A DNA stretch of 64,000 bases, taken from positions 20,770,001 through 20,834,000 of the forward strand of contig CM060731.1 in the NCBI GenBank assembly GCA_030704615.1, in the 5' to 3' direction. A program made the translations under genes and the position numbers. The DNA comes from Takakia lepidozioides. Its lineage: Eukaryota > Plantae > Bryophyta. How positions within the stretch are numbered: position 1 is the stretch's first letter; each line of letters starts with the position of its first letter. This document shows positions 27,631 through 52,119 of this stretch, piece by piece. Below the pieces are notes generated by a model. That model had not been told where the DNA came from. It saw only the letters and a list, made by a program, of their open reading frames with translations, and searched no databases.

Positions 27631-28607
27631 TGTCGAGCGGCTTTTACTCACCCATCCCTTCACTATCCAAGGTGGAAACTCCAAGATAGAAGAATTGGAT
27701 ATCTCTAAGCACTCAGCCCGCTCAGAACAATCAGTCATGACCTATAGCTACTGTATCATGGGGGTACTTCCTATTTGTATTCCTTCTCACATTCATATTA
27801 GCAAGTTACCTTACTGTCTATGTTTAAATATCAGATTGCTTCAGCAATCTACCAGGTTCTAATCACTCATCCATTCATTCCACAGCTTCACTCAGGTCTC
27901 TCTACACAATGTGAGTATGGAATATGTATCAGATTAATATCTATCAAGTATCAAACCAAAGCCATGGTGTCTCTAGTCTGCTCTACAGTACAACTCTACA
28001 GCTTGCATGAATCAAGCATCAACAGTCTGTTTCTCCTCCTTCACTGCGCTCTCCATCCCTCAGCTCCAGATCGTCCTTCTCTTCCCCGATGACCAAGTCG
28101 TGATCCCCAAGAAGTGTCTCTCCCTGTTGTTACTCTGCCTATTCTACCTGCAAGCTGTTCTAACTGCCTAACTAACTAACTGTCATCCAGACAGAATGCA
28201 CGTTCCCTCTGCAAATGTCGTTCCCTACCGCTAATAACCGTCCCTGTGAATGCTGTGATGGGCTGTGCCAAACTGTGTCGGGCTGTGACTGTGCCAAGCT
28301 GTTATTGGCTGTGTCAGACTGTGTCGGGCCGTGATAGACTGCGATAGGCTGTGACAAGCTGTGTCCGACTGTGTAAGGCTGTGTCAGGCTGTGACAAGCT
28401 GTGTCCGACTGTGTAAGGTTGTGTCAGACTGTGACAAGCTGTGTCAAGCTGTGTCTAACTGTGTAAGGCTGTGACTGACTGTGTAAGCCTGTCTACCACC
28501 CCTAAGGCCTGTGTTGGTCTAAGTCTATTATCCATAAGTCTGCGCAAAACATAAGGGTACCCCACAGAACCCGTAAAATTGTCTAAGTCCTAGACAACCC
28601 TCTAACA
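27631..28607 (-). repeat. 3' LTR of host element (977 bp)
   Basis: On the minus strand it begins TGTTAG, 3 nt after the PPT, and ends CGACA. It contains a low-complexity CTGTG/GTC tandem tract at 28250-28490. Confidence 0.9.
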
Positions 28608-28610
28608 TTA

Positions 28611-28624
28611 TCCCTCCTCCTCTC
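28611..28624 (-). promoter_or_regulatory. Polypurine tract of host element
   Basis: GAGAGGAGGAGGGA just upstream of the 3' LTR. Confidence 0.85.
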
Positions 28625-28831
28625 AAAAAGCCGTGTCTTCACGGTTTACTGTTTAGGATCAGCAAACCTTTGTGAACGAGGACCCTTCTGTCGGTGAGAG
28701 TCTCGTGGAGGACTCTGTGTGTGAGCCCGAGCCCTGTCACTGGCTGGTGGAGATGACTGTCCACCAAATACAAATGATTGCCCTTCCTTTGCTTGATAAG
28801 GAGGTAACTTCTCAGGCATAGGAGATCCCCG

Positions 28832-31800
28832 TCATTTCTTCTCCGCCATTTGTACTGCATAGTCCTCAGCCATGTCAAAAGGTTCCTCCATAGAACCAGT
28901 AGTATCAGAATCATCTCCCCCCCGGTTGCCTTTCAGTGCTCTGACCTTCTGTGGCATCTCAGGAATCCTGCGTGGCATACAGTGTTTGCCCACCATGTCT
29001 GGAAGGTTAAACTTTAAAACTTGCATCAATCTCTTGCGAGCAAAATTAGTGTACTCCTACAGCTCCTTGTCTGTATAGGTGAGGGGTGTGCCAATGACAT
29101 TAGAACAGTGTAACCATTTCCTGGCTTCATGTCCCTTAGAAAAAATGTGGTCAAGACCCAAGTTTTCTTTGGCCAAGTTGTCCAAAGCAAAATTGAACCA
29201 AGAACGAAGTTGGGGATCCTTCTGCAGCATGATCTTCACATCATACAGATATGTATGGGATGGAACTGAAGGTAACACCCAATGATCCTCAGACTTGGAA
29301 TAAGTCTGAAATCTGCATCTTTTGCTGCTCAACGTGATAGCGTGAAATGAAACAAGCAGCATAGTAGAGTCCACAACCCATGGCCAAACTAGGTACCTCC
29401 TTGGTCTTGGTGTAGATGTACCCATGAACAATCTGGAAGGCAATTAATTCCTTCAGCATGGTGCCTGCCTCAGACCAGTACCTTGCAAAATGGTGATCTT
29501 CAATGGGTCGGTTGGTCGGAAGAACCTTAGTCCGAGTTGCCACTGGCAACCAAATGCGCATGATCTGGTAATAGTGTGCCAAAGACTCTAGAGGACTGAA
29601 TTCTTTCCAAGCCAAATCCATAACAATGGGAATTTGGTTGAAGGGCATAATCATAGCCCGATTGTACTCAAGTGCAGCAGGAGTCTTAGGTGGGTTAAAA
29701 GAAGCATCCCCCCACTTCAGATTGCTGCAATGCCATGGTATCAACAGTGTGGACCTATTGTGGTTGTTGTGATATTGGCGCCACTGTCCCTCCTGTTGTT
29801 GGCAAGTCATGTACCTCCTGTGATGAAGATTGGAAAATCAGAGTCCGCGCATGCAAATAAGCAGCCACCAGCTGTCCCTCAGGAACAAAGGCTCTTTTGT
29901 CAATGTTGGAGCTCAAGTCATCCACTTCAGTCTGCAGCCCCTCTACATCGTCCTGCAACTCAGCTATCCGACTATAGACATTATCTATAGTGGTTTTGGC
30001 AATGTTCTGGACCTGTAGCCTGAGATCATTCATCTCATCTTGGGTGAGCTTTCTTGGTGCCTTCCCTTCCACTGGCCCTTGTGTTAACCATTTTTGCAAA
30101 AGATGATTATCTACCAAGTCCTGTGTAGCACCACGGAGATTCTGCTCCTCCTTGAGTCTATATGTTTCCAACTGCTGCTGTAAACTCTCCATGCGCTTCG
30201 CATGAGGTTCAACCAAAGCTGCATAGGCAGCAGACATATTATTGGCTTCCTTCCAGGCTTTGTTAGTCACTGAGAACTCATTCTTTCGTGCTGTGAGTGT
30301 TTGCTGCAACTCAAGGATGTACCTATCTTTCTGAGCTTCAACCTGATTGTACTGTTGAAAGGTATCCCCATTGCGACGGATAGTAGCCTTCAAGTCAGCA
30401 ATGAGTTTTGCCTGCTCCACTGACTCAGCCTCCACCATTAAACATCTCTCAGCTTGATTCTTAACTTCTAATGCAGTCAGCTCCAGAGTAGTTGTTAGTG
30501 TGGCATATTGGATGGTCATTTTCTGATGAACTGCCTCCAACTCTGTATGAAGCAACTTCACTTCCTGCAATTTTCCCTCATGCTTCACCTACAACTGGTA
30601 TAGCTGTTGCTTGTGTACTTCATGCAACTTCTCCTGCCCCAGACCTGCTTCAATCAGGTTTTCCTTCGCAAGCTATAGAGCAGATTGAGTGTCCTCCAAC
30701 TCTTTCTGCAACTTAAGGTTGTCCTCCATATCCACTTTATTTGCACACTCAGTGGCAATTCTTGCCTCAAACTCTTGCTTGAGCTCCTCCCTCAATGCTG
30801 CCAATTGTGTGGAAGGAACATGAGATTTCACATAGGTGCCCAACAAATTAAGTGTCCTGCTTATGGAACTCATAAGCATGGCCTGCTGTGGGTCTTCATG
30901 GAGAACTTGTTGCTGTTCTCCCTGATCCTCCACAGTTTGATGTTTCACAAACCAGTCAGGCCATGATCCCACATGATCTTCTTCTTGAGCAACCTCATCC
31001 TCCACAGGTGCTGTAGTGCCCTTGCACTCTACCCCTTTAACCTTTGCCACAGGTTTGGGCATAACTTGCACAACAGGGATTTCCTTGGGCAGACTCTGCA
31101 TCGTTGGTACTATTGGTTCTCCGACCATGCCAAAGTTTTCATAGAGAAGGTCACCCTTCTCAATCTCTGTCACTACCTGCTCTGTAGTGGGGATGTCTAA
31201 CCCCTCTCCCTCCACAGCAAGAGGCTCCGGTGTGACAACATGTACAATCTGAGTTACCCCTGGGGCAACCGGGTCAACTGGCTATGGTGGCTGTGGTATT
31301 AAGGTAACTTCTTCCTCCCTCTCCAAAGACCGTGCTTCCAGCCCCCTGTGTTGTTGCTCCTCATCCTGCACAAGAGCTATGGAAACATCATCTTTGTGGT
31401 TTCCTTGTAGCTAGTGGATCTGCCACTACAGTCGTATCCTGCTTCTGTCTCTTGGACTGGTGCTGCCCCTCCAATCCCCCTTCACCTTGTGAAGAGCCCT
31501 GCTCCTCAACTGCAGTTGTGGCTGTCTCAAACACTCCCATCACCTTGCGTTCTCGCGCATTAAGCAAACAAGAGTCAAAGATAATTTGCGCAATTATTGG
31601 GCCAGACACAATGATCGGGGACTTAGCAGTAGTATTTTGTAACCGCTTCATCTCCTCCACCAAACCATTGTATATCATCTCTGCACAAGCTACATCCTGT
31701 CCTCTCAAGGCTTTCAGTACCTCCTCCATGAAAGATCTGCTAAGGTACTGTTGGTTCTGTTTCATGGCAAACAGAATGTTCAGTATTTGGCCAATTTCCC

Positions 31801-32602
31801 TCAACTCTGGATACTCGGCCTTAGTGCAGATGAATCTCTGGTTCCTAAAGAAACTCGTTTATTGGAACAGATCCCCTATTTGCAATCTTGTCTTGTGCTC
31901 ATCCACATTTACATGACCAGATGGCAATTCAAACAGTTGTTGCAAGTACTGCGGAGTAATCTCTATATCTACTCCCTTCACCTGAGTAACTCCTGTCTGA
32001 GGCTCAAAGTTTTGAATGAATTGGATTATCAACCCCCGATGATGCAAAGACCACTCTTTGCGTAACAACCCTTCCAAACGCAGCTCCCTCAGCAGCTGCA
32101 CTGCATGTGGCGTAGCAATTGTCTGCTTCTGTAGAATCGTGGTGCTCTTCACCGTGAGATCCTCCATCCCTCTAATTCTCTTCATCCCAGACAGACAAGA
32201 GGGCATTGTTTGAAATAGCTGTAGGAAAGCTTGCAGGGCGTAAAGCATGAAAGTATGGTTGGCACAAAATGGAACGGGTAAGTGAGTGTAAGCCTGTGGG
32301 GCTTGCAAATAGTGAGTGAGAGAGAATGTACTTTCAACCCGTCCGTCCTTGCGCCACTGCGTAAGAAGTAAAGCTAGCATATAGTTTGTGATATCCGCCA
32401 TAGCTACAAAGCTATAGCTTTGATTGCCCCTCCCGTCGAGACGCTGGTTATCCGGAGCAACCCCTACTCTTCCGCTCATAACTTTTTTAATTTCTTGTTC
32501 TTGTTTCTTGAATGGAATCACTTGCATAAAATTCACGTTCCTGATTGGTCGTTTCCTCAATGGGTAATTTCTCAATTTTACCCTCATCTGTTCACATTCC
32601 AA
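28832..32602 (-). pseudogene. Long additional sense ORF between pol and the 3' LTR (fragmented; coiled-coil-rich)
   Basis: Chain of same-strand ORFs 31859-32602, 31388-31804, 30673-31215, 29755-30588, 29289-29810 and 29057-29443. The segment LIIQFIQNF...QVKGVDIEITPQYLQQLFELP resembles plant retroelement extra-ORF domains. Confidence 0.65.
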
Positions 32603-33169
32603 GTTGGAATGCCCACTCCTTCTTTGCCGAACGCGGAAAGGGTTCCGTTACCTGTCCCTTGGATTGATTAATGGGCCCGTAATTAGTTTCGGCTGAGGTA
32701 CCGAGTAGGTTCTTTGACGGCCCTGTTTGTCTTCTTGCATGATGGCACCCGCTATTGCAGTACATGCAATGTGGAGTGCTTTGCCTCTTAGGCCACGTGT
32801 TTGAATTCAAACACTCTCCCGTCTCCTCTGTCCGCGTGGCATATTCTCCGAGTTTGACTTCCAAGCTGCCTTTACACTCACCGGCCACTTTTCTGACGTT
32901 AACCCGCGTCCACCTGTCACTGACCCTATGGACTGTGCAACCTGTGTGGGCTGTGTTGGGTTGTGACAGGCTGTGTCAAACTGTGGTGAGCTGTGATATG
33001 TTGTGTCAAACTGTGGTGGGTTGTGATGGCTGTGTAAACACCCGTGTTTCCTGCTAAGGCCATACACATTCGGCTTTACGACAAGTGCTTCATGCTCCGT
33101 TGGTGTTACCGGTGTAATCTGTGACTGCATCTGTGTTTCAAGATGCAAATCATGCTGCAATGGTTTATC

Positions 33170-33510
33170 ATGGATACCACTGTATCCCTTCAACTTATTG
33201 GCATTAACTCTACCAAACCTCTTTGTTCATGGTTTGTAACATGGCTGTGTTGTTATCATACATCTTCTGTATGACATAAGGCCCTTTCCATGGTGACTTA
33301 AGCTTAGAAGCTTTAATCTTTCCCTTCTTCTGCAACCACAGTACCAAATCACCCGTCTTAAAAGTCTTCAATTTACCTTCATCAAACTGATCCTTCATCT
33401 TCATCTGAATTTTGGTCATGTTATCTGCTGCATCAGCACGTACTTCTTCCACATGATATAATTCATGTTTCCTTACTTTAATTGAATCCTCCAATTCCAT
33501 TCTCCTTCCC
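33170..33510 (-). pseudogene. Host integrase C-terminus (GPY motif)
   Basis: FKTGDLVLW...KLKSPWKGPYVI...NN...RVNANKLKGY. Confidence 0.88.
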
Positions 33511-33513
33511 CAT

Positions 33514-36500
33514 TCAGCAGTGTTGCTAGATGCAGCTGCAGTGGGGTCACGGGCTCATCGCCCACGACTATGGTGGACCAACTTGATACCACATGCATTG
33601 CTCAAGCGTGCATTTGATGGGGTGCAGCGGCCACCAAACATGACGGTGGATAGCATTTTGGACATAGGGAGGCAGTTTCAGCGTGTGAGACACGATGACC
33701 GATCATCTTTGGCAGTGGTCAATAAGGTGGGTCACCCACAAGCAGCATTGCCTACACTACTCAGCTTTCCAGGATCTCGTGCTTTCCGGGATGGTGGACC
33801 TGGCCTCTTGTGGGATAGCCAGTTGCAGCAGTTAGTGGAGCCCAATGCTGACGAGCGTGAGCGGGCAATGGGTTTTACCACTGGTACCACGGCGGTGCCA
33901 TCTCTTTCTGAGGCATCACATCGTCAGGTGTTGGGGCAAGCCATGGATCTCAATTGCTTGACCTGGATTATCAGCTTGGCTATGGCTGAGCAGCGCAGAG
34001 TATGGAGTACACTTCCCTTGATAGTCTCTCTACCTACCGAGACAGTACAGGCAGCGAGTGGGGGCGAACAGGTGAGGACCACGAGGTGCAGGCCGCATCC
34101 ATGGCACACGTGGGAGGTGCTCGAGGTTCAGAAGGAGTTGGCAGCCAAGGCGGCGGTGATGGATGAGGTTGGGGATTTTTCTCGGGTTGAGGAGGTCCTT
34201 AAGGATGGGATGATGGGGCAGGATGAGACATTGTCACTGACAGAGCAGGTAGTGGTCACTGCTCAAGAGGTTGCAGCATAGCAACCACGAGACGCGTCTT
34301 CTACCTCTAAGTCTACTGGACTCAAGGTTGCAGTCATGGAGGACAACTGGGAGCCTGATATTGGACTCATAGTCACCGGAGGAGAGAGACGACGTATATG
34401 GCGGTTCTTGAGGGCTTATAGGAACTGCTTTGCCTTCAGTTTGAAGGACTTGGGAGCACTGAAGGGTCAAGAGATTCACTGACACGCCAATCTTTCGGAG
34501 ACCCTATAGATACAGTGACATGGAAAGGTCCTTGATTCAGATGAGGACTCAGGACCTCTGGGAGGCTGGTTTGGTGGAACTATCTGGTGGAGAGTATGCT
34601 TCAGCCACAGCGATGCCAGCCAAGAAGGATGTCTATGGCAATTGGACAGAGAGACGTATGTGCGGTGATTACCGGCCTGTAAATCATCAGACCAAGTCCG
34701 ATAGGTATGCCATGCCAACACCAGAGGAGATCTTTGATGCCATTGGGCATGCCAAGGTCTTTAGCACTTTGGATTTATGATCCGGATATCACCAGTTGCT
34801 GATCAAGGAGGCGGATAAGCAGAAGACGACATTCTGGGGGATCAATGAGCACGGGAAGGATTGCCTATACCAGTGGCGGTTCTTACCATTTGGGCTTAAG
34901 AACGCTCCTACAGAGTTTCAGAGAGTCATGGACAGGATTCTAGCAGGGGTGGAGTTTGTTCGGTGCTACATAGATGACATCATCATCTTTAGTGCTATGG
35001 TGGAGGAGCATGAGAGACACCTTCAGGTGGTATTTGAGCGCTTGAGGGCGCACGGATTGAAGTTACATCCGGAGAAATGCAAGTTTTTCCACAACCAGAT
35101 TGAGTATCTGGGTCACATGATATATCCTGGAGGATTGGGGGTACATCAGACTAAGGTAGAGGACATTGCACAGATTCCACGCCCCACGGATGTGAGCCGA
35201 GTTCGAGCTTTCATGGGGTTGGCAAACTATTATAGACGGTTTGTCAAGGGATTTAGTGCCATTGCAAAGGCTCTAACCAAGCTGACCAAGGTGGACCAGA
35301 AGTGGCAGTGGGAAGATGAGCAAGAACGAGCTTTCCAAGAGCTCAAGACGAGCTTGACCTCGGCGCCCATCTTGAGACGACCTATCAGGGGGCGTCCCTT
35401 TCAGCTGTATACAGATTGGAGCATGCTGGGGCTTGGAGCGGTGCTCACATAGGTGGATGATGAGGGAAGAGAGTTTGTAGTGGCTTATGCCAGTCGCTCG
35501 AACAACGCTGCAGAGGCTAAGTATAGCTCATATGAGGGAGAGTGCTTAGCTGCAGTGTGGGCCGTGGCACACTTCAGGTGCTATCTATATGGCAATCTCT
35601 TCACCCTTGTCACGGATCACTAGCCACTCAAGTGGTTGATGGAATCAGACAAGCTTACGGGGAAGCTTGCACGGTGGGTACTCATACTTCAAGAGTATGA
35701 CTTTTAGGTTGTGCATCGACCGGGTTTGGTCAATCGGGATGCGGATGGGTTGCAGTCGCAATCCATGCACGAGCCAACAGGATGACACTGGAGCTCGGTG
35801 GCATGGTGAGACGGACGAGGAGATGGTGCCCGTTTGGCATGCATCTGCATTTCTGTGTATCTTGGCAGCGGAAGGCCAGGTTGGACCTACAACAGGGATG
35901 ACTGTAGACCGAGTGTCGGAGGACCCTGAGGCCAGCAATGAGCAAGGTGGCGCCAAAGATATACATGAGGATTCAGCTGTGTTGGACTATCTCTGCACTG
36001 GGGGCACGGCAGCCACTGTGACTGCCAAGGAGAGGGATCGGATCCTACAACGAGCCAAGAGGTTCAAGTGGGAGGGGACACACCTACTCCAAGTGTGGGA
36101 AGATGGTCGAGTGAGGATTGTGCCTCACCCAACCCAGCGGGCACGGTTAGTGCGGTATGCCCATGAGGAGTTGGGGCATTTTGGGGTGCAACGCACTCAT
36201 AGTCTACTGCAGGGATAGTATTGGTGGCGTGGTATGCACACAGAGGTGCAACAATTTGTGGTTAGGTGCATGGTGTGTGACAGGGTGCGTGCTTCATTCA
36301 ACGCCCCTACACCACAATTGCACCCTCTTCCGATCATGGGATTAGGCTATAGGTGGAGTCTTGACTTTGCAGGGCCGTTGCCATTGACCATGCGCCACAA
36401 CAAGTACGTGTTGGTGATGGTGGAGCACTTTTCCAAGTAGATCGAGTTGGTTCCATTGCCTGATAAGGCTAGTGAGGGAGCTGCGTATGCATTCTTGGAT

Positions 36501-37393
36501 TGTGTACTTAGCCGATTCGGTGCTCCAGCTGAGGTACTCACGGACCAAGGGAGAGAGTTCTTGGGGGAGTTTCAGGCGTTGTGTGACAAGGCCTTGGTAG
36601 ACCACCGCACCACTTCTCGGGATCATCATGAGGCCGATGGCTTGGCAGAGAGGGTTGTTCAGACAGTGAAGAGGGGTTTGCGCAAGTATGGCTTGCAGAA
36701 GGGACACCTAGGAGATTGGGACCTTCAGTTACCTTGGTTAGCCATGGGCTACAGGTTCAGCAAGCAAGCATCACTTGTCTCCTTCTCACCATACTTTCTT
36801 CTCTTTGGCCGAGAGCCGGATTTGCTTGCATCCATTTGTAGAGAAGTTGCTACAGTTCTCAACCTTAACGATCCGAACATGTGGGCACGTGCATGTGATC
36901 AGCGTGCAGAGTTGTTCAAAAAAGTCATGCCCATGGCTTTCGAGAACCTTGCCATTGCACAACATCGTGATACGTTGAGGTATGCTACCATACATGGTGG
37001 GGGCTATCGTCCTGGGGTTCGGAGATTTAACCCTGGTGACTATGTTTATCTGCAGCAGACTCCTCCTACGACCTTGGATGTGACTGCAGGACGTACTATT
37101 TTGAGGGTTCGAGAGGTGTTGCCATCAGGAGTCCTGATCTTGGAGGGTCGGGATGGCATGATTTGGAAGGACCATGTGCGTAATTGCGCGCCATGTCACC
37201 TTTCAAATGCTGATGGAAGGGTTGACCCAAACCTGGCAGTGGTACCTGCAAGTTTGAGGTGCGGTCTGCTAGAGGGGCAGCCACCATGCTGGTGTGTGAT
37301 CAATGCTCTAGAGGTTGGCATATGGGATATTTGACTCCACCTCTTGAGATGGTTCCTGATGGGGATTGGTTATGTCCGCATTGCATTGGATAG
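33514..37393 (+). pseudogene. Nested element pol, 3' part (inverted): C5-MTase motifs VIII-X, RT, RNase H, integrase, PHD finger
   Basis: MTase: AHRPRLWWTNL, ERERAMGF, RQVLGQAM. RT: MCGDYR, LPFGLKNAP, YIDD. RNase H: LYTDWS. Integrase: HEELGH...CMVC, LDFAGP, TDQGREF, GLAER. PHD: MLVCDQCSRGWHMGYLTPPL..VP.GDWLCPHC*. Multiple stops and frameshifts. Confidence 0.92.
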
Positions 37394-37642
37394 TGGGAGT
37401 GGATACAACCATGGAAGGCTAACAAGAAATGCAAGGCCAAGCTACTAGGAGACCTTGAACATACAAGATCCTGGCTCAAGTTCATAGATTGCAAGACGAC
37501 GACTAACGATGGGGCTACTCTTGTACCCGGCCTCTTAGTCTATAGAGTTTGAGTACAATAGGGACAGTGATAGAGGACTTAGTACGGCTGTGGCTATTAC
37601 ATCTTGTAGCTATCTGGAGTTAGAGGGACCTATCCACCAACT

Positions 37643-37649
37643 AGGGGGG
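37643..37649 (+). promoter_or_regulatory. Short polypurine tract of the nested element
   Basis: AGGGGGG 4 nt before the TGTGG start of repeat B1. Confidence 0.6.
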
Positions 37650-37653
37650 CGAT

Positions 37654-37738
37654 TGTGGTAGACTACTTTATTGTCCATATATGTGTGGTGTAGTTTGGAC
37701 AGTGATGTAGTTGTGTAGCGATACGTATGCGCACGACA
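37654..37738 (+). repeat. Repeat B1 (85 bp) of nested element
   Basis: TGTGG...GCACGACA; matches 38093-38177 with 4 visible substitutions. Confidence 0.92.
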
Positions 37739-37740
37739 GC

Positions 37741-38089
37741 TGTCAAGTTAAATAAACACAGTGTGAAACTAACTAGAATAAAGCTAGTTATTTGTATTTA
37801 ACACTTGAATTTAGTTCAAGTGTTAAGTCAGGTGTCAAGTTTAGCTTGACACCTGAACCATCTTATATTCACGAGAGTGTCAGTCGTGCGGCTCATCTCT
37901 CTCGAGTTGAGCCTGCACGACCGAGCTCCTTCTCTGCTTAGAATCTGAGTGTGCTTATGAAGGGAGAATATGATGTTGTGGGGTGGAGTCCCCATAGCTT
38001 GGGGTGCCCTTGGCTCGACTCTTAGTTTTAATGAGTGATTGTGTTGTATTGAGTGTTTCTGTGTCAACAGTGTGAATATAGTTTCAATC
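37741..38089 (+). repeat. Repeat A2 (~350 bp) of nested element
   Basis: TGTCAAGTTAAATAAAC...GTTTCAATC; reverse complement of 47336-47685. Confidence 0.92.
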
Positions 38090-38092
38090 TAT

Positions 38093-38177
38093 TGTGGCAA
38101 ACTACTTTATTGTCCATATATGTGTGGTGTAGTTTGGATAGCGATGTAGTTGTGTAGCGATACGTATGCGCACGACA
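38093..38177 (+). repeat. Repeat B2, the 3' terminus of the nested element
   Basis: Ends GACA and is followed by TSD CTAA (38178-38181), after which host RT resumes (KFIYLIEYTTWLSPIVIVPKKNGKLRVC). Confidence 0.92.
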
Positions 38178-38181
38178 CTAA

Positions 38182-40271
38182 GTTCATATACCTGATAGAG
38201 TATACAACTTGGCTATCACCCATTGTGATAGTTCCTAAGAAGAATGGCAAACTGAGAGTGTGTGAACTATAAGAAGTTGAATGCATGTACAAAGAAAGAT
38301 CCCTTTCCTTTGCCATTCACAGAAGCTGTACTGGACACTGTGGCAGGCCATGAGATGTACTCATTCATGGATGGCTTCAGTGGGTATAACCAAGTGCAAG
38401 TAGCGGAAGAAGACCAGGGAAAGACAGCTTTCATCACAAAATGGGGTGCTTATGCATACAAAGTCATGTCTTTTGGACTTTGTAATGCACCAGCAACTTT
38501 CCAGAGAGTGATAAGTGAATCTTTCCATGAGTATTTGGATGATTTCATGCAAGTGTTCTTAGATGACTTCAGTGTGTACAGCTCTAAGAATGAGCACTTG
38601 CAGAAGTTGGAGTTATGTTTGGCCAGATGCAGGATGAGAGGTCTTGGTCTGAATCCAGAAAAAGTGTACTTTCTGTGTGAACTCAGGGGTTACTGGGACA
38701 TATTGTGTGTAAGAAGGGACTGCTTGTGGATCCTAGAAAGACAGAGGCTATTAAAGCCTCACCACCACCAAGTAACGTTAAGGGTCTAAGGAGGTTCCTC
38801 GGACAAACTACTTATTATAGAAGGTTTGTCAGACGGTATGCACAGATGGCAGCTCCATTGAGCAAGCTTCTGAAGAAGGATGCAGTGTTTGCATGGACAG
38901 GTGAATGTCAACAGACATTTGAAGCACTTGCATTGTCAGTAACAACTACACCTGTGCTGATTAACCCTCGCTGGCATGTAGTATTTTATGTATACTGTGA
39001 TGCCTCAGGAGAAGCATTGGGAGCCGTGTTAGCCCAAAATGTCATAGAAAACATAGATTCACCTGTGTATTATGCTAGCAGATTGTTGAACAGTGCTGAG
39101 AGGAACTATAGCACTACTGAAAGAGAAGCTCTGGCAATGATTTATGCAGTCAAGAAATTCAAGCATTACCTATTGGGAAGGAAGTTTATGTTTTACGTGG
39201 ATCATCAAGCTTTGATTTATCTGGTGAACAAGCCTTTGATAAGTGGCAGGATAGCAAGATGGATGATAATCTTGCACGAGTTTGAATTTAAAGTTGTTTA
39301 CAAGCCTGGCCGTTTGCATCTTGTGGCAGATCACTTGTCACGGCTATCAACAGGAGAGGCTGCCACGGGAGTAGACGACCAACTGCCTGATGCGAGTTTA
39401 TTTGCGGTGGAAGTGCAGGGAAATGCAGGGAAGTGCAGATGATTGGTTAGATTGGCAGTGGCCAATCAGATACTACCTTACTCATGGTCAGTGCCCACCC
39501 AATTATGGGAAGGAACAAAGAAAACAAATAGCTATCAAGGCTTTACCATACACTATGATAGGGGGAAGATTGTATAAGCTAGGACCCGATGGAGTTCTTA
39601 AATGATGCTTGTACCACCATGAAGTAAATAAAGTTTTGGAAGAAGTTCATAAAGGAGTGGCTGGAGGTTATTTTGGAGAGGAGACTACCAGTAGAAAAAT
39701 ACTATTTGCAGGTTACTGGTGGCCTACTTTGTTCAAGGATGTACAAAAGTATTGCAAGAGTTGTGATGAGTGTCAAAGGCTAGGACCTTTGCCAAGATCT
39801 GGGAAGATGGCTTTGCATCCTACGATGCCTACTGAACCATTTCAGAAATGGGGACTAGACTTTGTTGGACCAATTAATCCACCAGCCAGGAATACACAGA
39901 ACAAGTGTATAATCACAGCCACTGATTATACTACAAAGTGGGTGGAAGCTAAGGCTCTGAGGGACAACACAGCTAAGTCCACAACAAGGTTCCTATATGA
40001 GAACATACTCACAAGATTCAACTGTCCCCTGGAATTTATCAGTGACCAGGGAGTTCATTTCATCAATGAGACCATAAAACTATTGACTAAAGAGTTCATG
40101 ATTGTGCACAGGAAGAGTACAACCTATTACCCACAGGGCAATGGATAGGCAGAGGCCACCAACAAAATATTATGCACTATCTTGGCTAAGATAGTCAATG
40201 CAAACAGAACAGACTAGGATACAAAGCTGTTGACAACTTTGTGGTCATACAAGACTTCATATAAAGTCACC
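38182..40271 (+). pseudogene. Host RT-RNase H-integrase core (inverted)
   Basis: RT: FLDD. RNase H: YCDASG, YYASR, NYSTTERE. Integrase: WGLDFVGP, SDQGVHF, YYPQGNG*AE. It ends ...WSYKTSYKVT at the breakpoint. Confidence 0.93.
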
Positions 40272-43200
40272 ATATGTACACTAGTCATCACCTTGGCCCG
40301 AGAATCACCCATCAATGGCACATTCTCCAAGATATATGCCGGAGAGTCTGTCTGCTGAAGCTGTAAATAGCGCAGGACCCTCAACATCTCCCAAAACAGG
40401 CGTGACCTTGAGTCTTGTAACCCATTGCCATACCCAGCTGATGAAAGCCCTTGGTAGGGCCAATCTGCCACTACTAAATGAATAGGGCCAACCCGCTCCA
40501 AATCATGCGCCCCCAACAAAGAGATGTCTGCTGGCAAGGCTTGTTGGTATCCACGAACTGCAGACACTAGCAACAAATCAGGGTACTGCTGCACCAACTG
40601 AGCAACATGGCGCAGTGAGATGCGTCGTGCAGTCTCATCCCTCTCCACATATAGGTAACGTCGAACTCGTACACCTGCCTGCAGCACTGCAACTAATCCA
40701 GTGCTAATCCCGCCAAATAAGTCCAGAAGGCATATACCTTCATCCGGGCACTGCCACACAAGAGGTGTGGTGTCCAATGGCGACAACTGAGGTGGTCCTG
40801 GTGCAATCACCGCACTCTCCTCCTCTCCTGATGGTACAAAGGCCTCTACCCAGGCTTGTTGCACCCGTCTATCAGCAGCCTGCTGCAAATCCTTGCTCGT
40901 ACCCCACAATGGAGTATGAGCAACCATGGCAGGCAACTCCGTTGTACCATGCATGTCATCCTGCTCTGCTAGAGGTGGCACATCCTCTGCATGGGCATTG
41001 CCCTCCAGCAACTCTCCAGGCCAACTAACTGCAGCTATGAAGGCTACTAGTGTTGGCATCTTGTCCCGTTGGGCAGCAGCAACACCCCCAATGAACGTCA
41101 CATGGAGCTGTACACGACGACCATCCCCTGACTGCCATCTAGGCCTGTAGGATGCTGACTCATCCCAAAAATCCAGGGTGAAGCCCATGGGATACAACAC
41201 TGCCCCACCAACGAGGACATCGTAAGAGACAACATCTGTCACAATGGCCTTAGCTTGCATCACTGAGCCATCTATAGGATGATCCGGCTGTAGTCTAATG
41301 GTCAACTCACGCCGTGTCATGCCCTGAGCCTGCTCTGATCCTCCCAGAAATATCTGTATCTGGAAAGGACAAGGCTCCATATCCGCCTCCATGAGGCCCA
41401 AACCTTCAATAGCAGCTCTGCCCAACATCAGTGGCTGAGCTTCCGAGTCCAACAAGACCCGCAGTGGCCGGTACCTCTTGCCTGTCGGTCCACTCAAAGA
41501 GAAAATGCCATCCTGGTTGTCTAACAAGACAACTCCAGGTGTCACCATGGCGCGCTCAAAGGCTGGCCTAGCTGGCAGCTCTGTCAACCTGGCAGCTGCA
41601 GCTTGCCATGTCGCAGCCGAGGCAGTCTTGACCCTCAAATCCGAGGATCCCTCTGCCACTACACCTTCCACTAACTCCGCAGAAGATGAAGTGACCTCCC
41701 CACTATCACAGAGTGTTGCTGCTAGTTTGAACACTGCAGCTGGTCTTACCCCCGGCGTCGCGATCATGGTTGCCGAGAACAGTGGGGCCTGACACACAGA
41801 GGTGGCTGCCCCCAACAACACACTGGCTGCACTAGCCTTGGCAGCAGGTGTCAGTGCTGCACGTGTAGCTCTCCCCAATGACACAATAACGGCCTCTATA
41901 TCTGTCGGGCGAGAACTAGGTGCCATGGATGTCGTCGACACTATCTCTCCCAAGGTGAATGATTGAGGCAACCTAGTTTGACAGCTTGCCTCCCCACGCT
42001 GTGGATCTAACTCCACCTCTGCACCTCGTGGCTCAGGAACTCGTGCTGCTCCTCGAGTGACGGCTGCAGCAGACTCCACCTGCACTAGTGGTAGTGCTGC
42101 CCCACACATAAATCCCATGCCTCCCATGTCTCCTCCGTCAGGATGATGCTGCTGAGGAAGAACATGAGGTGAACCCTCAGGTCTTGGAGCTGGTACCACC
42201 TGAGCTGTGGCCATGGCAGCAAGCCTTTGCTCCAGTTGCTGAAGCCGGTTGGCCATGCCTTGGTCAACGCCCTGGCCTCCACGTCCTTGGCCATACTGTG
42301 CTTGCCCTCGTCCTACACCTTGTGCCTGACCACCTCGTCCTCTTTGAGGTGCTCCACCTTGCCCTCGGGCACCATTGTTCCCTTGGAACTGGCCTTGCCG
42401 CAACTCAGGGTGCAAGTCATAACACTGGGCATCTCCATGCCCATACTTGCCACAATGCCCACATTGCAACTGTGCGGGCTGTGCTAGTGCCGACCTTTTG
42501 CCACTCTCTGGGCAATCTTTCTTGATATGAGGACCTCCACATGTCCAACATACCACCCCTGGTTGCTGTTGGCCTGCAAAAGATGCTACTAGCCTCTGCA
42601 CCTGAGGTCCCCTATAAGCTCCATGAAATTTGGGTTGGGGAACCTTGCCCCCCTGACCACGCTGTTGGGCAGTCCCTTGTGCCTGTAGGCTGGTAGCTGC
42701 GCCTCGGTCAGGCATGTCCTTGCCAAATCCAATGGTAACAACTCGCTCCTCCACCATGTTGAGCTCAATCCGCTCAGCCAGCAGAAACACATCTGCTAAT
42801 GTGGGTTGGGCTGCTTGTAACAGGGTTGCATCCCGCACCCTTCTTGTCCAAAATTCCATACCAGAATTGGATTGCCTGAGCTTCAGTAACCCCTTGGGTC
42901 ACACTTATCAAGCGCCTCATACGAGTGTAGGCCTCTCGTAGGCTCTCATTGGATTTGCGCTGGAAGTCTTGCAAACTTCGCAGCTTCTCTGTCCGTACGC
43001 CTTGGTAGTTCGTCCGTAATTCCTGGAAGAACTCCACCACCGGGTTGAATCTAGGCACATGTGTTGTAGTCGTGGCAGGAGGAGTAGTATCACCTTTTGA
43101 ACTGGTACCACCTGCAGAAGTACCGGCACTACTTGTTCCACTACTAGTGCTGGCAGTGGGACATATTGGTGCTGATGCAGCTACTGGTCGCGTCGTGCCT

Positions 43201-43694
43201 CGAGTAATGGAGACGTAGTCAGGTGACCAATACATCCTCCACTCCTCAATCTCTGCTTCATGTCCTCGCCTAAACTTGTGGTAATCGTCCATAGGCGGGC
43301 CTTCCAAATGTTGGAACAGTTCCTTCCACGCCATGAATGGGGTGAACAGCTGTGGATTGCGCATCTGCTGCAAATCACACCAACTGTCGAACTCCTAGAT
43401 AAAGTCATCCAGCTCGATTGTGTCCATAGCTCTAGAGTACCTACGAGGCCCCTTGGTAGCTCCATACATCTCCTCCATGTCGTCCCACAACAATGGCGAA
43501 TGAAACTGCACACATGTTGATGAAGCCTCCGAGTCCGTGTCTGACTCTGCACTAGTTGATGGTGGAGGTGAAGGTAGTCTGAAACGAACACCTCGTCTAG
43601 TGAACCCACTCTCACTGCTACTGCCTGTAGCCGTACTCCCCTCAAAACCCTTGGGTAACTCCGTGATGACATTCACAACCCGCACCTCCCCCAC
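40272..43694 (-). pseudogene. Nested element gag-protease-C5-MTase (motifs I-VI)
   Basis: Gag: FQRKSNESLREAYTR and two CCHC knuckles (CWTCGGPHIKKDC, CGHCGKYGHGDAQC). Protease: VLLDSEAQ...DVLVG. MTase: LLDLFGG (I), YVERD (II), DI (III), VVADWPYQG (IV, degenerate), SRLF (V), YILENV (VI). Confidence 0.9.
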
Positions 43695-44214
43695 GTGACA
43701 CTATAAGGCTCTAGTACTAATTCTAATAGTGACACGGGTGAGCATCTGTTGCAGATTAAGGGTCATATCCCAGTGGCTAAGGGCACCTGCACCTGCATCC
43801 ACCGCAAGAACTCATATGGTTGGCTGGTCATCAATCCAACCTCACCATAGAAGAAACACTGGTGGTCTTGCTGGTCATCACTCCAGCCTCACCACCGACA
43901 GCATACTCTAGGATTGACCGGTGATCAAATCCGGCCTAATCCCTATGAAAGCAAGCGCCCATACAAAACCATCATGGCACACAGTCAAGCATGCAGGCGT
44001 TGGGGGGGATCCAAACACAAAAAATCAAAACATCAACACTCCCACACCAAAATCCATCTGCAGTGCTGATCCTGCAGAACATCCTAGCCCAAAAGCCCGG
44101 ACTGACTGGCCTCCACCAAGAGAGGCTTTGGCAACTACAAGTACAAAGTAATAAAAATAGTAAAAAGAGGGAGGGGAAGAATAGAGGCCCGACCAAGCAA
44201 GATCTAATCCTGAT

Positions 44215-45048
44215 CTATGCTATCAACTGCCAGACTTCTCTCAAAGTGCCTCGCTCTGCATGATGGTAAGGTGTAGGAGGTATATCTATGTCCAGAAACC
44301 TGTTACTAACCTTATCCCAAGCTACAGTAGCTCGCTCTAACCAACCCTCCTCCTCTTTCTGCCAGGTAGAGACAAAGCAATACTCCCCTATCTCCCGCTC
44401 ACTGAATACTAAGGAAAATAAAGGTAGGGTCTGACAGTCTCTCAACTCGAAAGCTTTGAGACGGTTGTGGGTGTCCCCATTGCGAATGACTGCATCTCGT
44501 TCAAGCAGAACAAACTTGTCATTGCTAACGAACCCCCGCTCGTGGTTGCCTTGTGCAGAGCGTGTCCGACTGCAACCATGTTTGATTGCAAAAATTTGTG
44601 TAGCTCCTGCTCCTCTGCTCCAGTACACCACGGCCTTGTGGCTGAACACCTTGGTCCCCGGGGCTGTCTTTGGCTGTGTTCCAAACCTAGCTTCCACCCA
44701 CTTTGGTATTTCACCTACACTTGCAGAACTGCTTGCTCCAACAGAGTTCTCACTGTCCAAAGCAATATTGAGGCCCTCAACGCCAAGTACTGCAGTTTGT
44801 TGTCTATTGCTAATGTCTGACTCCCAGTATGCAATCAACTCGTCCAACTGCTCTCCACTCAAATTAGTCTGAGTTCCTTGAGAAACATAAATCTTGTCCC
44901 CTTGTATGCACAGGCTAAGAGAAGAGACCTGCCCTTCAATTACGTCCTCATTTCCCCCAGCCATACAAGGAGGACATCCCCCAGATTTGTCTCTCATGTA
45001 GACCACAACAGGTTCTAGAAGCAGAATTGTGGATCTTTCATAGCACAC
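44215..45048 (-). CDS. Uninterrupted 277-aa ORF of unknown function upstream of gag in the nested element
   Basis: Open frame in the element's sense orientation; no recognisable domain. Confidence 0.5.
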   Translation of the reverse strand: MCYERSTILLLEPVVVYMRDKSGGCPPCMAGGNEDVIEGQVSSLSLCIQGDKIYVSQGTQTNLSGEQLDELIAYWESDISNRQQTAVLGVEGLNIALDSENSVGASSSASVGEIPKWVEARFGTQPKTAPGTKVFSHKAVVYWSRGAGATQIFAIKHGCSRTRSAQGNHERGFVSNDKFVLLERDAVIRNGDTHNRLKAFELRDCQTLPLFSLVFSEREIGEYCFVSTWQKEEEGWLERATVAWDKVSNRFLDIDIPPTPYHHAERGTLREVWQLIA

Positions 45049-45316
45049 TCACACTCAAAAAATTCCATAGATTTTTAGCAGAGTCCAAAAAACTAAAACC
45101 AGATAGGTAGATTTCCCCTTTCTACAGCTATCCCCCCAAAAACTGAGTCAAACGGAGTCCATTTGACAAAGATATGACCAATTAGGCTCTAAACCATTTA
45201 AATTAGATCAAAAGGGGTTCTCGCCATTAAAAACTGCTCCCAAGTCATCTACGAGTTCCCATGTAGTTCTCACATATTCCCTGGATTTCACCTACAGGTG
45301 TTTCAAACATACACTG

Positions 45317-47140
45317 GTGAACTGCTCTGCATCTCGCAAGCTGGCTGCTCAAGTCCATGGCCCACCTTGGATTAAAATTCGTAATGATTCCTCCCATGCA
45401 GCCAACGCTACTTCTATGGATGCTCCCGAAGAAGAAGATGCCGACGTCAGCGATATGCATCTGTCTGACAAGCAGTTCTTTGCAACAGAACAGGCATACC
45501 AAACCCGCTCGACATAGAATATGGCAATGGACAGGGTGGGCCACGACCCAAACACTCCTGCCGCACAATCTCCATTGGCGTCCAATCTGCACGTTCACCG
45601 GATGACCCTCCGCAATACCACGACCACACCACCTGCTGCTCCCCTGGCTGGTAGCTGCCCGAATAACAAACGTGCTTCTAGCACGATCAACAGTGATACG
45701 GGCAGCTCCCACTCTGACCCCATGAAGTAACAAGGAGTTGCTCCAGATCTATCACATATGCACCTCCAACTCATTTTCTACGCGCCAACTGTGGATGGGC
45801 TATCCTGCCCTCGAAAAACATGCCCATGATGCGCAATTGCCCTTCTTCACGGAAACAAGAACAACGGCAGAACTTCAGAAGTTGGGCCTTCGGGCCTCAG
45901 AAATTCACGAAATGCGCCACTGCCTCAAGGCCTTCCCTCACGTCCCACAACTATTCTTCCTTGTTGTGCGTCCTGATGGACACGAGGGACAATTTCTTCC
46001 GCTTACTCAACTACCAAAGGGCACTCCAATTGACCCGAACTCAGACCTATCTGCTACTCTATGTCACATCTTGATAAGGTTCGATAGCGATACTGACATG
46101 CCAAAAGAGGAAGCCCTTTATCGCGCCAAGAAGAGACTCGAAGAAATGCAAATCCCCCTGGGAACTGTCTTGTACAATCCAATCACGGCATTCACAAAAC
46201 ATGGAAACAAGATGTGGTATGGGTCAAAATCGAACTGCTATACCCTGCGACTGATGGCATCACGCTCTTGAAAGGCGACATGGCGTTCATCATGGAGATG
46301 GCCTCCGGGACCCCGGTGCAAGGAAAAGTAAAGAAAGCATACAACCTCCTCGCCACTACCGACTACCTCTCCCTGTACATGACGAGCGAGTCTCCAATGG
46401 TGCAATAAGCCTCCATCCCTTGTCATTGATCGATTGGTCAAGTTCGACCCGCACATCCACAGTCTGAACGGACCTGCTCCACCTGCCAAGGAGATTTTGG
46501 ATCGCTTGCGCGTAGCTAATATCAATGAGGCACTCGCCGACACCGTGAACTCTATCAGCATCAACGCAAATCCAAGCTCGAAACACGGCCAGGACCTGCT
46601 TATGCTTGAATCGACAAAAAATTAGCTCCACATGCCATTTCAATCAAAACCGACATATGGGGGGACTTAGCAGCTCTGGACAATAGGGTCGCCACCACCA
46701 TGGTGGCTCAGAAGGAGGAGTAGCACGCCTACCTAGTCTCTCTAAAGGACTCCATTACCGAGAACCTTGGCGCTAACCTCGCCAACTTCTACAATCACGC
46801 CAATGTGGTTCTCGCTAAGCTTCCCCCTCCCAACAGCTCGGCCACTCATCCCTTAGTGTTGGGAGATGCAAGCATGACACCGGAAGCAACGACGGGTGGA
46901 TACAGCCCACTTGCCCTGCTGGAATTCCATCACGCTGATCCCCTCGTCTGGGAATCACGAGCTCTGCGGCAAAACCATCCGCCACGGCCACGCTGACCCT
47001 CCTACCACCGCAACAGCCTGGTTTTGACACCAGAGACCCCACCACAACAGGATTACCTGCAGCGCACACTCCAAATGAGAATGTGTAGGCAACCCCTGCG
47101 AATGCTTCCACCAGCCTGAAACAAACGGGCATCCCTGGGG
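45317..47140 (+). pseudogene. Degenerate antisense ORF of unknown function in the nested element's 5' region
   Basis: Chain of protein-like fragments 45317-45730, 45738-46271, 46214-46625 and 46805-46996, linked by single stops or frameshifts. Confidence 0.5.
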
Positions 47141-47335
47141 CAATTATTGTTGGCTTTGAACTGCTGCAGCAACACTTCAAATGGTTTCCGCCTTCCTGTT
47201 CTGCTCCACTCGGCACACATAGCCAGTCTAACTTGCAGGCTCCCCGTGACCAAGCTATATTCTAATAGTGCTTAAAAACAAAAACATCATATCTAGCTTA
47301 GCACTAGAAAACTAGATAGATGATCTCTCTCGAGT

Positions 47336-47685
47336 GATTGAAACTAGATTCACACTGTTGACACAGAAACACTCAATACAACACAATCACTCATTAAAAC
47401 TAAGAGTTGAGCCAGGGGCACCCCAAGCTATGGGGACTCCACCCCACAACATCCTATTCTCCCTTCATAAGCACACTCAGATTCTAAGCAGAGAAGGAGC
47501 TCGGTCGTGCAGGCTCAACTCGAGAGAGATGAGCCGCACGACTGACGCTCTCGTGAAGATAAGATGGTTCAGGTGTCAAGCTAAACTTGACACCGGACTT
47601 AACACTTGAACTAAATCCAAGTGTTAAATACAAATAACTAGCTTTATTTCTAGTTAGTTTCACATTGTGTTTATTTAACTTGACA
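47336..47685 (-). repeat. Repeat A1, the 5' terminus of the nested element
   Basis: The minus strand begins TGTCAAGTTAAAT directly after host ...GAGGCTAA (TSD 47686-47689). It is not followed by B. Confidence 0.92.
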
Positions 47686-47689
47686 TTAG

Positions 47690-50600
47690 CCTCAACCAAC
47701 TTCTTGATCTCTTCCCCAACCTTCTGTGCATAGTTAGGATTCATCATGTACCTTGCCTGTTTAATTGGTACTGACCCTGGTTCCAGTTCAATCTTATGCT
47801 GGCAGATCTCAGGTGGTATCCCTTTCAGATCCTCATAGCTCCAAGCAAATACATCTTTGTATTTGATAAACAGACTCCTAGCTTCCTCAAAGAATTTTGG
47901 CTCCAAGTCAGCCCCTACTTTCACCATTCTTGGTTCCTCCTCAGTTCCCACATTCACTTCTCTCACCTGCTCTTCAGCTGTGATTGCCCATCCAGCTACT
48001 ACTTCATCCTGTAAATTCACAGTGGCTGGTTCTTCTAGGATTTCTATTTCTCCCTCTCTTTCCTCATAGAAATGTGGTGGGAAACTACTTGTTTCCCCCT
48101 CAATTAGTGTTGCTGTTACTGCACCACAGCAGATACATTTAAAACAACTCAGACCTCTCAGTTGCATTTCTGCAACCTGCTCCCATTCTGGGTGTGCAAC
48201 AAACATGGTAGCTTCCTGCACCTCATCAAGTCCTCCCCTCCAGTCGTACTCTCTGACTCCACGAGGTCTTCTGGTAGCAGATAGCATACTAGATTTCTTA
48301 GTGGTGACCTGTATCTTGTGCTTCCCATCATGCACAGTCAGTAATTGGGAATTCCAGTCATGGAATACCCTGGCCTGTTTCAACCTGGTCGACCCAGCAA
48401 TAAGGAGTAAGCTTCCATGACATCATCCATTTTCAACATAGTCACTGTGATCTTAAAGATCATCTTCTGAATCTGTATCTTAACTCCTCTTATCAAGCCT
48501 AATGGTTGTACACTCCTTTGATCTGCCATTGTTACTGTGAATGGGGTTGGTTTCATGTTACTTAGACCAAGCTTCTGCCTTAATTGGTCTTTCATAATAT
48601 TCACTCCTGAACCTCCATCTATCAGTACATCAGTCAAGTCTGTGCTTCCAATTCTCAATTGGATTACTGGCATAAAATCATCAAAGTCCATGACTGTTTC
48701 TCGCCCTTCAGGCTTCACATTATAACTTGTCACCTTGCTGCTCAGGTCTGTGTTCTCTGTCACATGAGTAATCTGATTGATTGCTTAAGACAGCCTGTGC
48801 CTACAATGAGGTGCCACAGCCAATAGCTGTCCAATGGTAATCTCAGCTTTGGACTGGCATATTACTTCAGCCAAAGTCCCTTCATTATCCTGCACCTGTG
48901 AAGCCTCTTGCTTCACTTCCTCTTCACCTTCTTCATCTTCTCTTTCAAAGTCAGAAGAATCTGCCATAGGGATATCAGTATTCTTCTGCATTTCCCTTAT
49001 GGTATCAGCCACATCCTTGTGCAGTTCCTTCTCATCTCTCCAAGCCTCATCATCTTCAGGCACATCACTGCCATCTTCATTAACATCTTCTTCCTCATCC
49101 ACTGGAGGTATTAGTTTAGCTTTGCTTCTGGTCACTATCATTGTACTTACTTCTGGTACAAAACATGGCCTAACCATGTGAACTGCCACCACTGGGCCTT
49201 CATTCATCTTCTTCCTCATCCACTGGAGGTATTAGTTTAGCTTTGCTTCTGGTCACTATCATTGTACTTACTTCTGGTACAAAACATGGCCTAACCATGT
49301 GAACTGCCACCACTGGGCCTTCATTCATCTTCTTCCTCATCCACTGGAGGTATTAGTTTAGCTTTGCTTCTGGTCACTATCATTGTACTTACTTCTGGTA
49401 CAAAACATGGCCTAACCATGTGAACTGCCACCACTGGGCCTTCATTCATCTTCTTCCTCATCCACTGGAGGTATTAGTTTAGCTTTGCTTCTGGTCACTA
49501 TCATTGTACTTACTTCTGGTACAAAACATGGCCTAACCATGTGAGCTGCCACCACTGGGCCTTCATTCACAGAAGCTCTCATCTCATTTTGGTGTCTGAT
49601 CCAGAATGGACAAGCTGCTTTGCGATGTCCTGCCTGGTTACAACAGTAACACAATTCTTCACCATTGGGTCCTTGCCCTTGGTCTGTTATGGGATTATTT
49701 CTATAATCTTGATTCCCTGGCTGGTAATTCCCCCTTGGATTACCCTGATAGTTGCCTCTGGGATTGCCTTGGTAATTCCCTCTTGGATTACCTCTCCCTG
49801 CCATACCATTATTATATCCACCAGGCCTACCATAGTGGTCTTGATCATTGTTTTTTCTTGGTTGGGGCTGCACTTGATGCACCCTCACTTGCCTAGGTTC
49901 TTTTGCAACTGTCCTTCTGTTGTAATAACAATTCTCAGTAGAATGGTTATCCATTTTACAGATAGTACAATGTTTCTCTTTCATGTGGCATTCAGCTGTG
50001 GTATGGCCTTCGTTCTGGCATTTTACACACCAAACACCTTTCCTCCAATGTGTTGCAGCCTCTCTGGCATATTTTTTCAAGATTTCTTCCAATCTTTTCT
50101 CATAGTTGTCCCTCTTCAACTTTTTCTTCTTCTTGCTCTTCCTCTTGAGCTCTTGCTCTTCTTCCTCCTCTGACTCATCTTCAGAGTCCTGAGCATTCCC
50201 AGTTGCTCAATTCTATTGGCTGTTTTGAATGCCTCTTCCACTATATTATGGGGTAGCATATCCACTTTCTTTTGTAATTTTGGTCTTAGTCCACTCACAA
50301 ACCAGGTCTTCTGTAACCCTGGTGTTGGTACAGCAGCCAGTTTTTTCATCATTAACTCCATCTTTTTCATGTACTCTTCAACAGTTTCATGCTTCTTTTG
50401 CCTTAACTGTTGTAAACTCCCATACACTTCATCCTCAGTTTTGCTTGTCCTGAACCTGTTTTGGAATGTCGTATTAAGGCCATTCCAGGTTAGGAAATGA
50501 TTATTAGGAAACCTTGCATACCATTCACTTGTTTTCTTGATAAGTGAACAAGGAAACAGTCTCATCTTGGCATCATTGCCATTCTCATAGTTCACAATAC

Positions 50601-52101: not shown

Positions 52102-52119
52102 TCCCCAGTATGGTCGCCA
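52102..52119 (-). promoter_or_regulatory. Primer-binding site (tRNA-Arg-like)
   Basis: TGGCGACCATACTGGGGA, 2 nt downstream of the 5' LTR; typical of Athila/Tat-group PBSs. Confidence 0.8.

Follow-up and report, generated by a model that had tools for sequence, protein, structure and literature searches.

A methyltransferase inside a Gypsy element

We analysed 64,000 nucleotides of Takakia lepidozioides (Bryophyta; GenBank assembly GCA_030704615.1, contig CM060731.1, positions 20,770,001 to 20,834,000 of the forward strand), and this whole stretch is called the window below. It contains an ordinary Gypsy retrotransposon (the host element), and a second Gypsy element, which carries a C5 cytosine DNA methyltransferase (MTase), is inserted in the reverse transcriptase (RT) of the first. 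It is almost certain that this second element is a decayed copy split by an inversion, and that its family encodes a DNMT3-like MTase and a PHD finger. The copy itself is dead: it is split by the inversion, contains stops and frameshifts, and has Tyr at the catalytic Cys of MTase motif IV. Our overall account, held with moderate confidence, is that the family encodes Gag-protease (PR)-MTase, then a stop codon, then RT-RNase H (RH)-integrase (INT)-PHD, and that it likely integrates from circular complementary DNA (cDNA) that is opened at an internal palindrome. Neither the conserved stop, at 34279, nor the split terminal repeats, which are the element's most unusual trait, had been noticed in an earlier sequence-only reading of this DNA.

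That reading had listed MTase motifs in two halves, two CCHC knuckles, RT, RNase H, an integrase and a PHD finger, and all of these are present where it placed them (Table 1). In a Pfam scan, the N-half of the MTase matched DNA_methylase (E 3.4e-6; 27.2 bits, cut-off 22), and RVT_1 (8.6e-27), RT_RNaseH (3e-17) and PHD (1.8e-8) also passed their cut-offs. Matches to rve (2e-5), Integrase_H2C2 (4.4e-5) and Retrotrans_gag (5.8e-4) fell below theirs, and the scan gave no match for the protease region. The expected DNA_methylase match was thus recovered for the N-half but not for the C-half scanned alone. Assignment to Gypsy is borne out by the order PR-RT-RH-INT with a DDE integrase, seen in the Pfam matches and in metagenome loci.

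The inverted block holds the 3' part of the MTase element plus host RT-INT (38178-40271), and a short stretch is missing from both elements at the breakpoints. Among the listed contigs, none spans the window's breakpoints (33513/33514 and 40271/40272), so the source for the inversion is the assembly itself. Contigs from three runs of one sample link 33514 to 40274 on opposite strands, i.e., with the MTase halves joined, and a 5009-nt contig from a second organism has the N-half and the 3' end spaced as expected without the inversion. Summed contig depth, which we do not take as copy number, is of the same order over the MTase as over RT. As a side observation, loci L043-L045 and L048 (near 9998) are 5'-truncated inside the MTase, close to the position of the window's breakpoint.

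We also fetched 52 metagenome loci by MTase motifs, a choice that places MTase-less relatives outside the set. Both MTase halves are adjacent on one strand in 42 of them, and L002, L008, L017 and L036 carry the full PR-to-PHD order on a single contig. With the joined contigs, these loci establish PR-MTase-RT-RH-INT-PHD, the order proposed from sequence alone, as a family trait.

A search with the C-half of the MTase found 34 longer proteins, the named ones coming from Calypogeia fissa, Marchantia polymorpha and Sphagnum fallax (56-77% identity). Of the 18 members of one Marchantia cluster, 16 are named, and clustering at 50% identity of everything found in a full scan left 821 clusters; an earlier homology search confined to very long proteins had given one match. 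Judging from the named homologues, the family is present in land plants, which upholds its earlier placement there. The nearest named RTs are from liverworts (75-80%). A quick RT tree (111 rows; 5 short ones were dropped, 7 of angiosperm type were thinned by id, and neither Tf1 nor Tcn1 served as a reference) places the window beside Calypogeia and Marchantia with support 92. The window falls within a 72-row clade (Shimodaira-Hasegawa-like approximate likelihood ratio test, SH-aLRT, 97) that includes PHD carriers and the Klebsormidium protein KFL_013780010 and stands apart from angiosperm and ant elements.

Distant relatives have a second order: in 19 of 24 long proteins scanned, the MTase lies between RNase H and integrase (RT-RH-MTase-INT-PHD). 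Locus L046 (557-3172) likewise has the MTase before the integrase, so the MTase has moved within the polyprotein, and P0240 (in P0240-P0351) has a Tudor domain after the PHD. A viral-contig collection yielded 11 matches to the palindrome and 31 weak MTase loci; none of them carries the family's Gag, RT or integrase.

Table 1. Features of the MTase element and its host element (window coordinates; LTR, long terminal repeat)
Feature	Position	Strand	Remarks
Host Gypsy element, ordinary type	27631..52678	-	LTRs 52122-52678 and 27631-28187, 96.4% identical
Inverted block, 6.76 kb	33514..40271		short losses at both breakpoints
Target-site duplication CTAA, left	47686..47689	-	in host element's RT
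Repeat A1, element's 5' end	47335..47685	-	starts TGTCA, ends CA; 97% identical to A2
Likely transcript 5' end / self-primer	47518..47530	-	~30 nt below TATA-like site; exact reverse complement of site after A1
Self-priming type primer-binding site, 13 nt	47323..47335	-	no tRNA-type TGG start
Low-depth stretch in 5' region	45224..46876		summed contig depth ~1000-fold below core
Open frame of 277 codons upstream of gag	44218..45048	-	
gag	42392..43700	-	interrupted by one stop and one frameshift
CCHC knuckles	42550-42512, 42463-42422	-	gag-PR frame
Aspartic protease	41102..41560	-	LLDSEA in window copy, LLD[ST]GA in homologues
Protease motif LLDSEA	41455-41438	-	gag-PR frame
MTase N-half, motifs I-VI	40274..40789	-	Tyr replaces catalytic Cys
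MTase N-half motifs	LDLFGG 40726-40709, VERD 40648, ADWPYQG 40468-40448, ILENV 40333	-	gag-PR frame
MTase C-half, motifs VIII-X	33514..34005	+	
MTase C-half motifs	AHRPRLWWTN 33553, ERAMGF 33859, LGQAMD 33931	+	
Conserved in-frame stop TAG then CAA CCA	34279..34287	+	likely readthrough site, Gag-PR-MTase / RT
RT and RNase H	34463..35704	+	contains frameshift and stops
DDE integrase (H2C2, rve, C-terminal part)	35943..37259	+	contains stops
PHD finger	37262..37390	+	frameshifted; one Cys to Tyr in window copy
Polypurine tract	37643..37653	+	directly before B1
Repeat B1 (TGTGG...GACA)	37654..37738	+	
Palindrome GACA-GC-TGTC, B1/A2 junction	37735..37744	+	likely integrase attachment site
Repeat A2	37741..38089	+	
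A2/B2 junction, variable between copies	38090..38092	+	likely ligated circle junction
Repeat B2, element's 3' end	38093..38177	+	95% identical to B1
Target-site duplication CTAA, right	38178..38181	+	

The stop codon, the methyltransferase and the PHD finger

The sequence-only reading had placed the MTase inside Pol, in one continuous polyprotein, and this is not supported: MTase and RT are separated by an in-frame stop, both in the window and in each of the 27 loci examined (27 of the 31 with an RT match; L004, L025, L032 and L037, whose RT match starts late, were omitted). In 26 of the 27 it precedes RT by exactly 180 nt, with CAA as the next codon; the two frames are in register throughout, and Marchantia proteins terminate at the equivalent position. 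Such conservation across loci rules out random decay as the origin of the stop. The MTase belongs to the Gag-side product, whether the downstream frame is reached by readthrough or by reinitiation, and is likely made in Gag-like amounts; only readthrough would join it to RT.

UAG followed by CARYYA is described as a readthrough signal in plants (PMC2754532), and we moderately favour readthrough as the way in which RT-INT-PHD would be made. Several points weigh against it. The strict CARYYA context occurs in the window and only 3 of the 27 loci, the stop reads TAA in 7 loci, several loci are one copy sampled more than once, and MTase and RT share one frame in some distant relatives (P0026, P0031, P0250). 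In 23 of the 27 loci the stop is followed by CAA-C[CT]C and then ATG, six bases past the stop, where annotated RT proteins begin. This is also compatible with reinitiation, and the downstream frame could come from that or from a separate or spliced RNA, with the MTase still on the Gag side. We consider this unlikely, because the window, L012, L043 and L044 are without that ATG yet keep TAG-CAA-YYA, and because the frames are in register in every locus examined.

Profile and structure matches both favour a C5-MTase of the DNMT3 type, as the motif forms had suggested. Among solved structures, a profile built from ten natural homologues matched DNMT3A (E 3e-19) better than a DRM-type plant enzyme (1e-8) or HhaI (7e-7), and a model of the Calypogeia homologue matched DNMT3A/B (Foldseek E 2.5e-16; mean predicted local distance difference test score, pLDDT, 50, with the MTase part mostly 70-90). 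The gene is intronless and its motifs unrearranged, with I, IV, VI, VIII, IX and X in canonical order. The PC motif is kept in 28 of the 34 homologues, which were found by the C-half alone, and contigs from the source sample have a Cys codon at the catalytic position in about 40-56% of depth. The ratio of nonsynonymous to synonymous substitution rates (dN/dS) between the window and the loci is 0.08-0.15 in 10 of 12 pairs; on the other side, dS in these comparisons is near saturation (1.5-3.1) and the median dN/dS among the loci is 0.5 (RT 0.35).

Retrotransposon Dnmt3s tested so far methylate CG, and methylation of cDNA in the particle has been put forward for DIRS elements by de Mendoza et al. 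(PMC5890265). The most likely role here may be the same, methylation of the element's own cDNA in the particle, to which we give about an even chance. Two results count against it: observed/expected CpG is 0.44-0.51 in the MTase element and 0.11-0.17 in the host element, which gives no indication of additional CG methylation, and expression of the Klebsormidium enzyme in yeast produced no methylation, an outcome its authors judge inconclusive (PMC5890265). The main target of the MTase might instead be host DNA where the element inserts, or the protein might merely bind DNA or RNA, and both the missing extra CpG loss and the distant relatives with the MTase beside the integrase (after RNase H) speak for this. 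In the window lineage, however, the MTase precedes the stop and RT-RH lies between it and the integrase, an arrangement that fits an abundant particle-borne enzyme, so we regard action on host DNA, or mere binding, as doubtful.

PHD fingers that read trimethylated lysine 4 of histone H3 (H3K4me3), i.e., those of the ING/TAF3 type, have a cage Trp two residues before a zinc-binding His. At this position the family's PHDs have Gly (33 of 34) or Ala (1 of 34) and never Trp. Their best solved matches are CHD4, PHF21A, Lid/KDM5, ATXR5 and AIRE, whose fingers we take to be readers of unmethylated H3K4. Given the missing cage Trp and these closest fingers, unmethylated H3K4 is a reasonably probable ligand.

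Terminal repeats and the proposed integration route

The inserted copy has the layout A...B-GC-A-B, and L036, whose coding part is ~70% identical to the window element, has the same layout. Target-site duplications of 4 bp flank three elements (CTAA in the window, AAGG in L036 and CACA in the rearranged L026), and sequencing reads contain the uninterrupted host target site. All nine distinct intact 5' ends begin at A, in mid-LTR, with B preceding none of them, so they depart from the conventional LTR retrotransposon, whose insertions have a whole LTR on either side. Nested solo LTRs are ruled out as the source of this layout, with the duplication flanking A1 and B2 and L036 being identical in layout. 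Tyrosine-recombinase elements of the DIRS/PAT/Ngaro type make no target-site duplication, and we rejected this identity as well: rve and H2C2 are present, the element frames scanned gave no recombinase match, and there are the three 4-bp duplications. Separately, L026 (13736-14512) is a further copy of the family that has undergone an internal inversion and a deletion close to its 3' end.

B lies behind a polypurine tract and A is followed by a primer site, so the LTR that is reverse transcribed is likely B-GC-A (TG...CA). The palindrome GACA-GC-TGTC stands at the B/A junction in the window, L002, L036 and the distant L046. The A2/B2 junction is unlike between the window, L036 and L026, and L026 retains 9 nt of the primer-binding site there, as expected of ligated cDNA ends. 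The primer site is complementary to a stretch of A that lies ~25-30 nt below a TATA-like site; the complementarity spans 13 nt in the window and 17 nt in both L028 and L036, with differing letters. In 7 of 10 elements this self-priming match is better than in any of 200 shuffles, and the region folds (z -4.55 and -3.23).

These features suggest the following life cycle. Transcription would begin inside A1, at a start placed by TATA spacing, and the RNA 5' end, which pairs with the site after A1, would prime reverse transcription as in Tf1. The plus strand would be primed at the polypurine tract, giving a linear cDNA with the LTR B-GC-A, whose ends would be ligated into a two-LTR circle, the presumed origin of the variable A/B junction. 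The DDE integrase would then cut GACA/GC/TGTC with a 2-nt stagger, leaving CA-3' ends, and insertion with a 4-bp duplication would yield the A...B-GC-A-B that is found. Most ribosomes would halt after the MTase, allowing its Gag-level synthesis and packaging, with RT-INT-PHD arising by readthrough. The MTase would methylate the element's cDNA in the particle, and the PHD would steer integration to chromatin with unmethylated H3K4.

From the arrangement of the repeats, it is probable that inserted copies are two-LTR circles opened at the internal palindrome by the DDE integrase, but some observations weigh on the other side. The elements with two complete ends number only two, or three with the rearranged one; in 3 of 10 elements the self-priming match is no better than chance; and the longest such match in L003 and in L022 is elsewhere in A. 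A circle with two palindromes should also give the mirror form A-B-GC-A...B, which is seen in none of the nine 5' ends, although it could be lost quickly via recombination between close A copies. Two loci, L011 and L017, have nothing of the element beyond B1, with L024 ambiguous in this respect; opened one-LTR circles would fit such a form, as would repeat-to-repeat recombination.

In the PAT/Ngaro replication model, split repeats serve as templates for a circle. The same might apply here, with RNA running from A1 into B2, the B/A junction copied from B1-GC-A2, and an integrase replacing the tyrosine recombinase. This would account for the absent mirror form, and the repeat layout is that of split-direct-repeat elements, which de Mendoza et al. 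call DIRS-like (PMC5890265). It is nonetheless improbable: a conventional TG...CA LTR, B-GC-A, is delimited by the tract before B1 and the self-priming site that follows A1, and the variable A2/B2 junction may hold primer-site remnants. It has the circle-cutting step in common with the route that we prefer.

A pairing like restriction-modification, in which the MTase methylates the palindrome and so shields attachment sites in full genomic copies from the integrase, is less probable again. Every full copy does retain an intact GACAGCTGTC, and MTase and palindrome occur together in two domain orders (L046 and the window) and, by the paper's description, in Klebsormidium (PMC5890265). The pairing is pure conjecture, however, and the palindrome has no CG, while the tested retrotransposon Dnmt3s methylate CG. 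The weakest alternative, a one-off chimera or assembly artefact with a host MTase fragment in a Gypsy element, could draw on the missing breakpoint-spanning contigs, but is refuted for the family by the contiguous (MTase-motif-selected) loci, the same-organism contigs, the many Marchantia and Calypogeia proteins and the number of clusters, and has practically no chance of being right.

Putting these parts together, we tentatively suggest an ancient streptophyte Gypsy lineage in which attachment sites moved to mid-LTR, the two-LTR circle became the normal route, DNMT3 is packaged at Gag level via a leaky stop, and new copies arrive pre-methylated in bryophytes. If the account holds, DNMT retrotransposons are multi-copy in Marchantia, with many annotated as hypothetical genes, and Marchantia methylome work faces an unlisted de novo source of 5-methylcytosine. 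The ends of such elements would likely be misread by standard LTR finders. The circular precursor for a DDE integrase is an old retrovirology question; with inserted copies that resemble opened circles, it would become testable in a tractable plant.

Surrounding sequence and known systems

The low-depth stretch in the element's 5' region may be an insertion or subfamily-specific sequence. Two antisense frames within it (45726-46268 and 46097-46405) gave no Pfam match and no usable ESM Atlas match, and the frame at 44218-45048 had no match in Pfam, ESM Atlas or the metagenome loci; a DyP match from the searches with frames 44218-45048 and 45726-46268 was under the recognition threshold and was rejected. 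Downstream of its integrase, the host element has several extra open frames (29755-32647, minus strand), one coiled-coil-like, and those scanned gave no Pfam match; two arrays of a 10-bp CTGTG-type repeat (28289-28518 and 32931-33030) flank them. Its gag-protease region has a ~121-bp near-perfect tandem repeat (49075-49569), either a recent duplication or an assembly artefact. Elsewhere, an intronless, frameshifted Yju2/Saf4-like gene copy (about 7400-8260, minus strand; Pfam E 2e-9) is likely a pseudogene, and two repeat pairs belong to other elements: one inverted (9382-9776 and 20953-21354, 93%, 11 kb apart) and one direct (44-2843 and 60657-63500, 75-86%, 60 kb apart). No tRNA genes were found in the window.

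In its accessible text, PMC6338049 states that DNMT-carrying retrotransposons are absent from land plants such as tracheophytes, and the corresponding parts of bioRxiv 10.64898/2026.05.21.726589 and PMC12344493 name 'streptophytes' but not land plants. The available portions of PMC10952607, PMC11982613, PMC6453930 and a Marchantia sperm preprint do not mention the family. Within literature of this scope, which excludes Repbase and subscription journals, we found neither the family's occurrence in land plants nor its permuted LTRs described.

Tf1 and Tj1 insert with whole LTRs at both ends and, unlike the window family, have no MTase. As in our family, their primer-binding site complements the element's own RNA 5' end (PMC4600332). 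Foamy-virus integrase cuts the palindromic junction of two-LTR circles, so a DDE integrase acting on a palindromic LTR junction, predicted for the window family, has a described counterpart; the foamy-virus palindrome is an end-to-end junction, whereas ours is internal to the LTR, with the inserted copy permuted (PMC1180852). The stop context resembles readthrough of the tobacco mosaic virus type, with UAG then CAA CCA in the window and CAA CCC in most loci (PMC2754532).

Retrotransposon-borne C5-MTases are also described in SymbioDIRS-Dnmt3 (PMC5890265) and in EpiLTRs (bioRxiv 10.64898/2026.05.21.726589). The former differs in having the tyrosine recombinase of DIRS. EpiLTRs likewise couple an MTase with a chromatin reader, but their DNMTs are sister to DNMT4, occur together with DAM and a chromodomain and, by that preprint's account, represent a separate acquisition.

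The closest precedent is KnitGypsy-Dnmt3 of Klebsormidium nitens, a Gypsy element with a Dnmt3 and DIRS-like repeats (de Mendoza et al. 2018, PMC5890265), which confirms the algal precedent named in the sequence-only reading. The two have in common the Gypsy domain set, an intronless and unrearranged Dnmt3-type MTase, DIRS-like repeats and purifying selection. KFL_013780010, the Klebsormidium RT in the 72-row clade, is a partial protein that may or may not be a KnitGypsy-Dnmt3 copy. They differ in that the window family is in land plants and has a conserved stop parting MTase from RT, whereas the paper places the MTase in the Pol reading frame; the word 'PHD' is absent from the paper's text, which offers no mechanism for the repeats (its figures lay outside this comparison). 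The idea of an MTase in a Gypsy element is therefore already known, and the additions made here are the land-plant range, the Gag-side MTase and the permuted LTRs.

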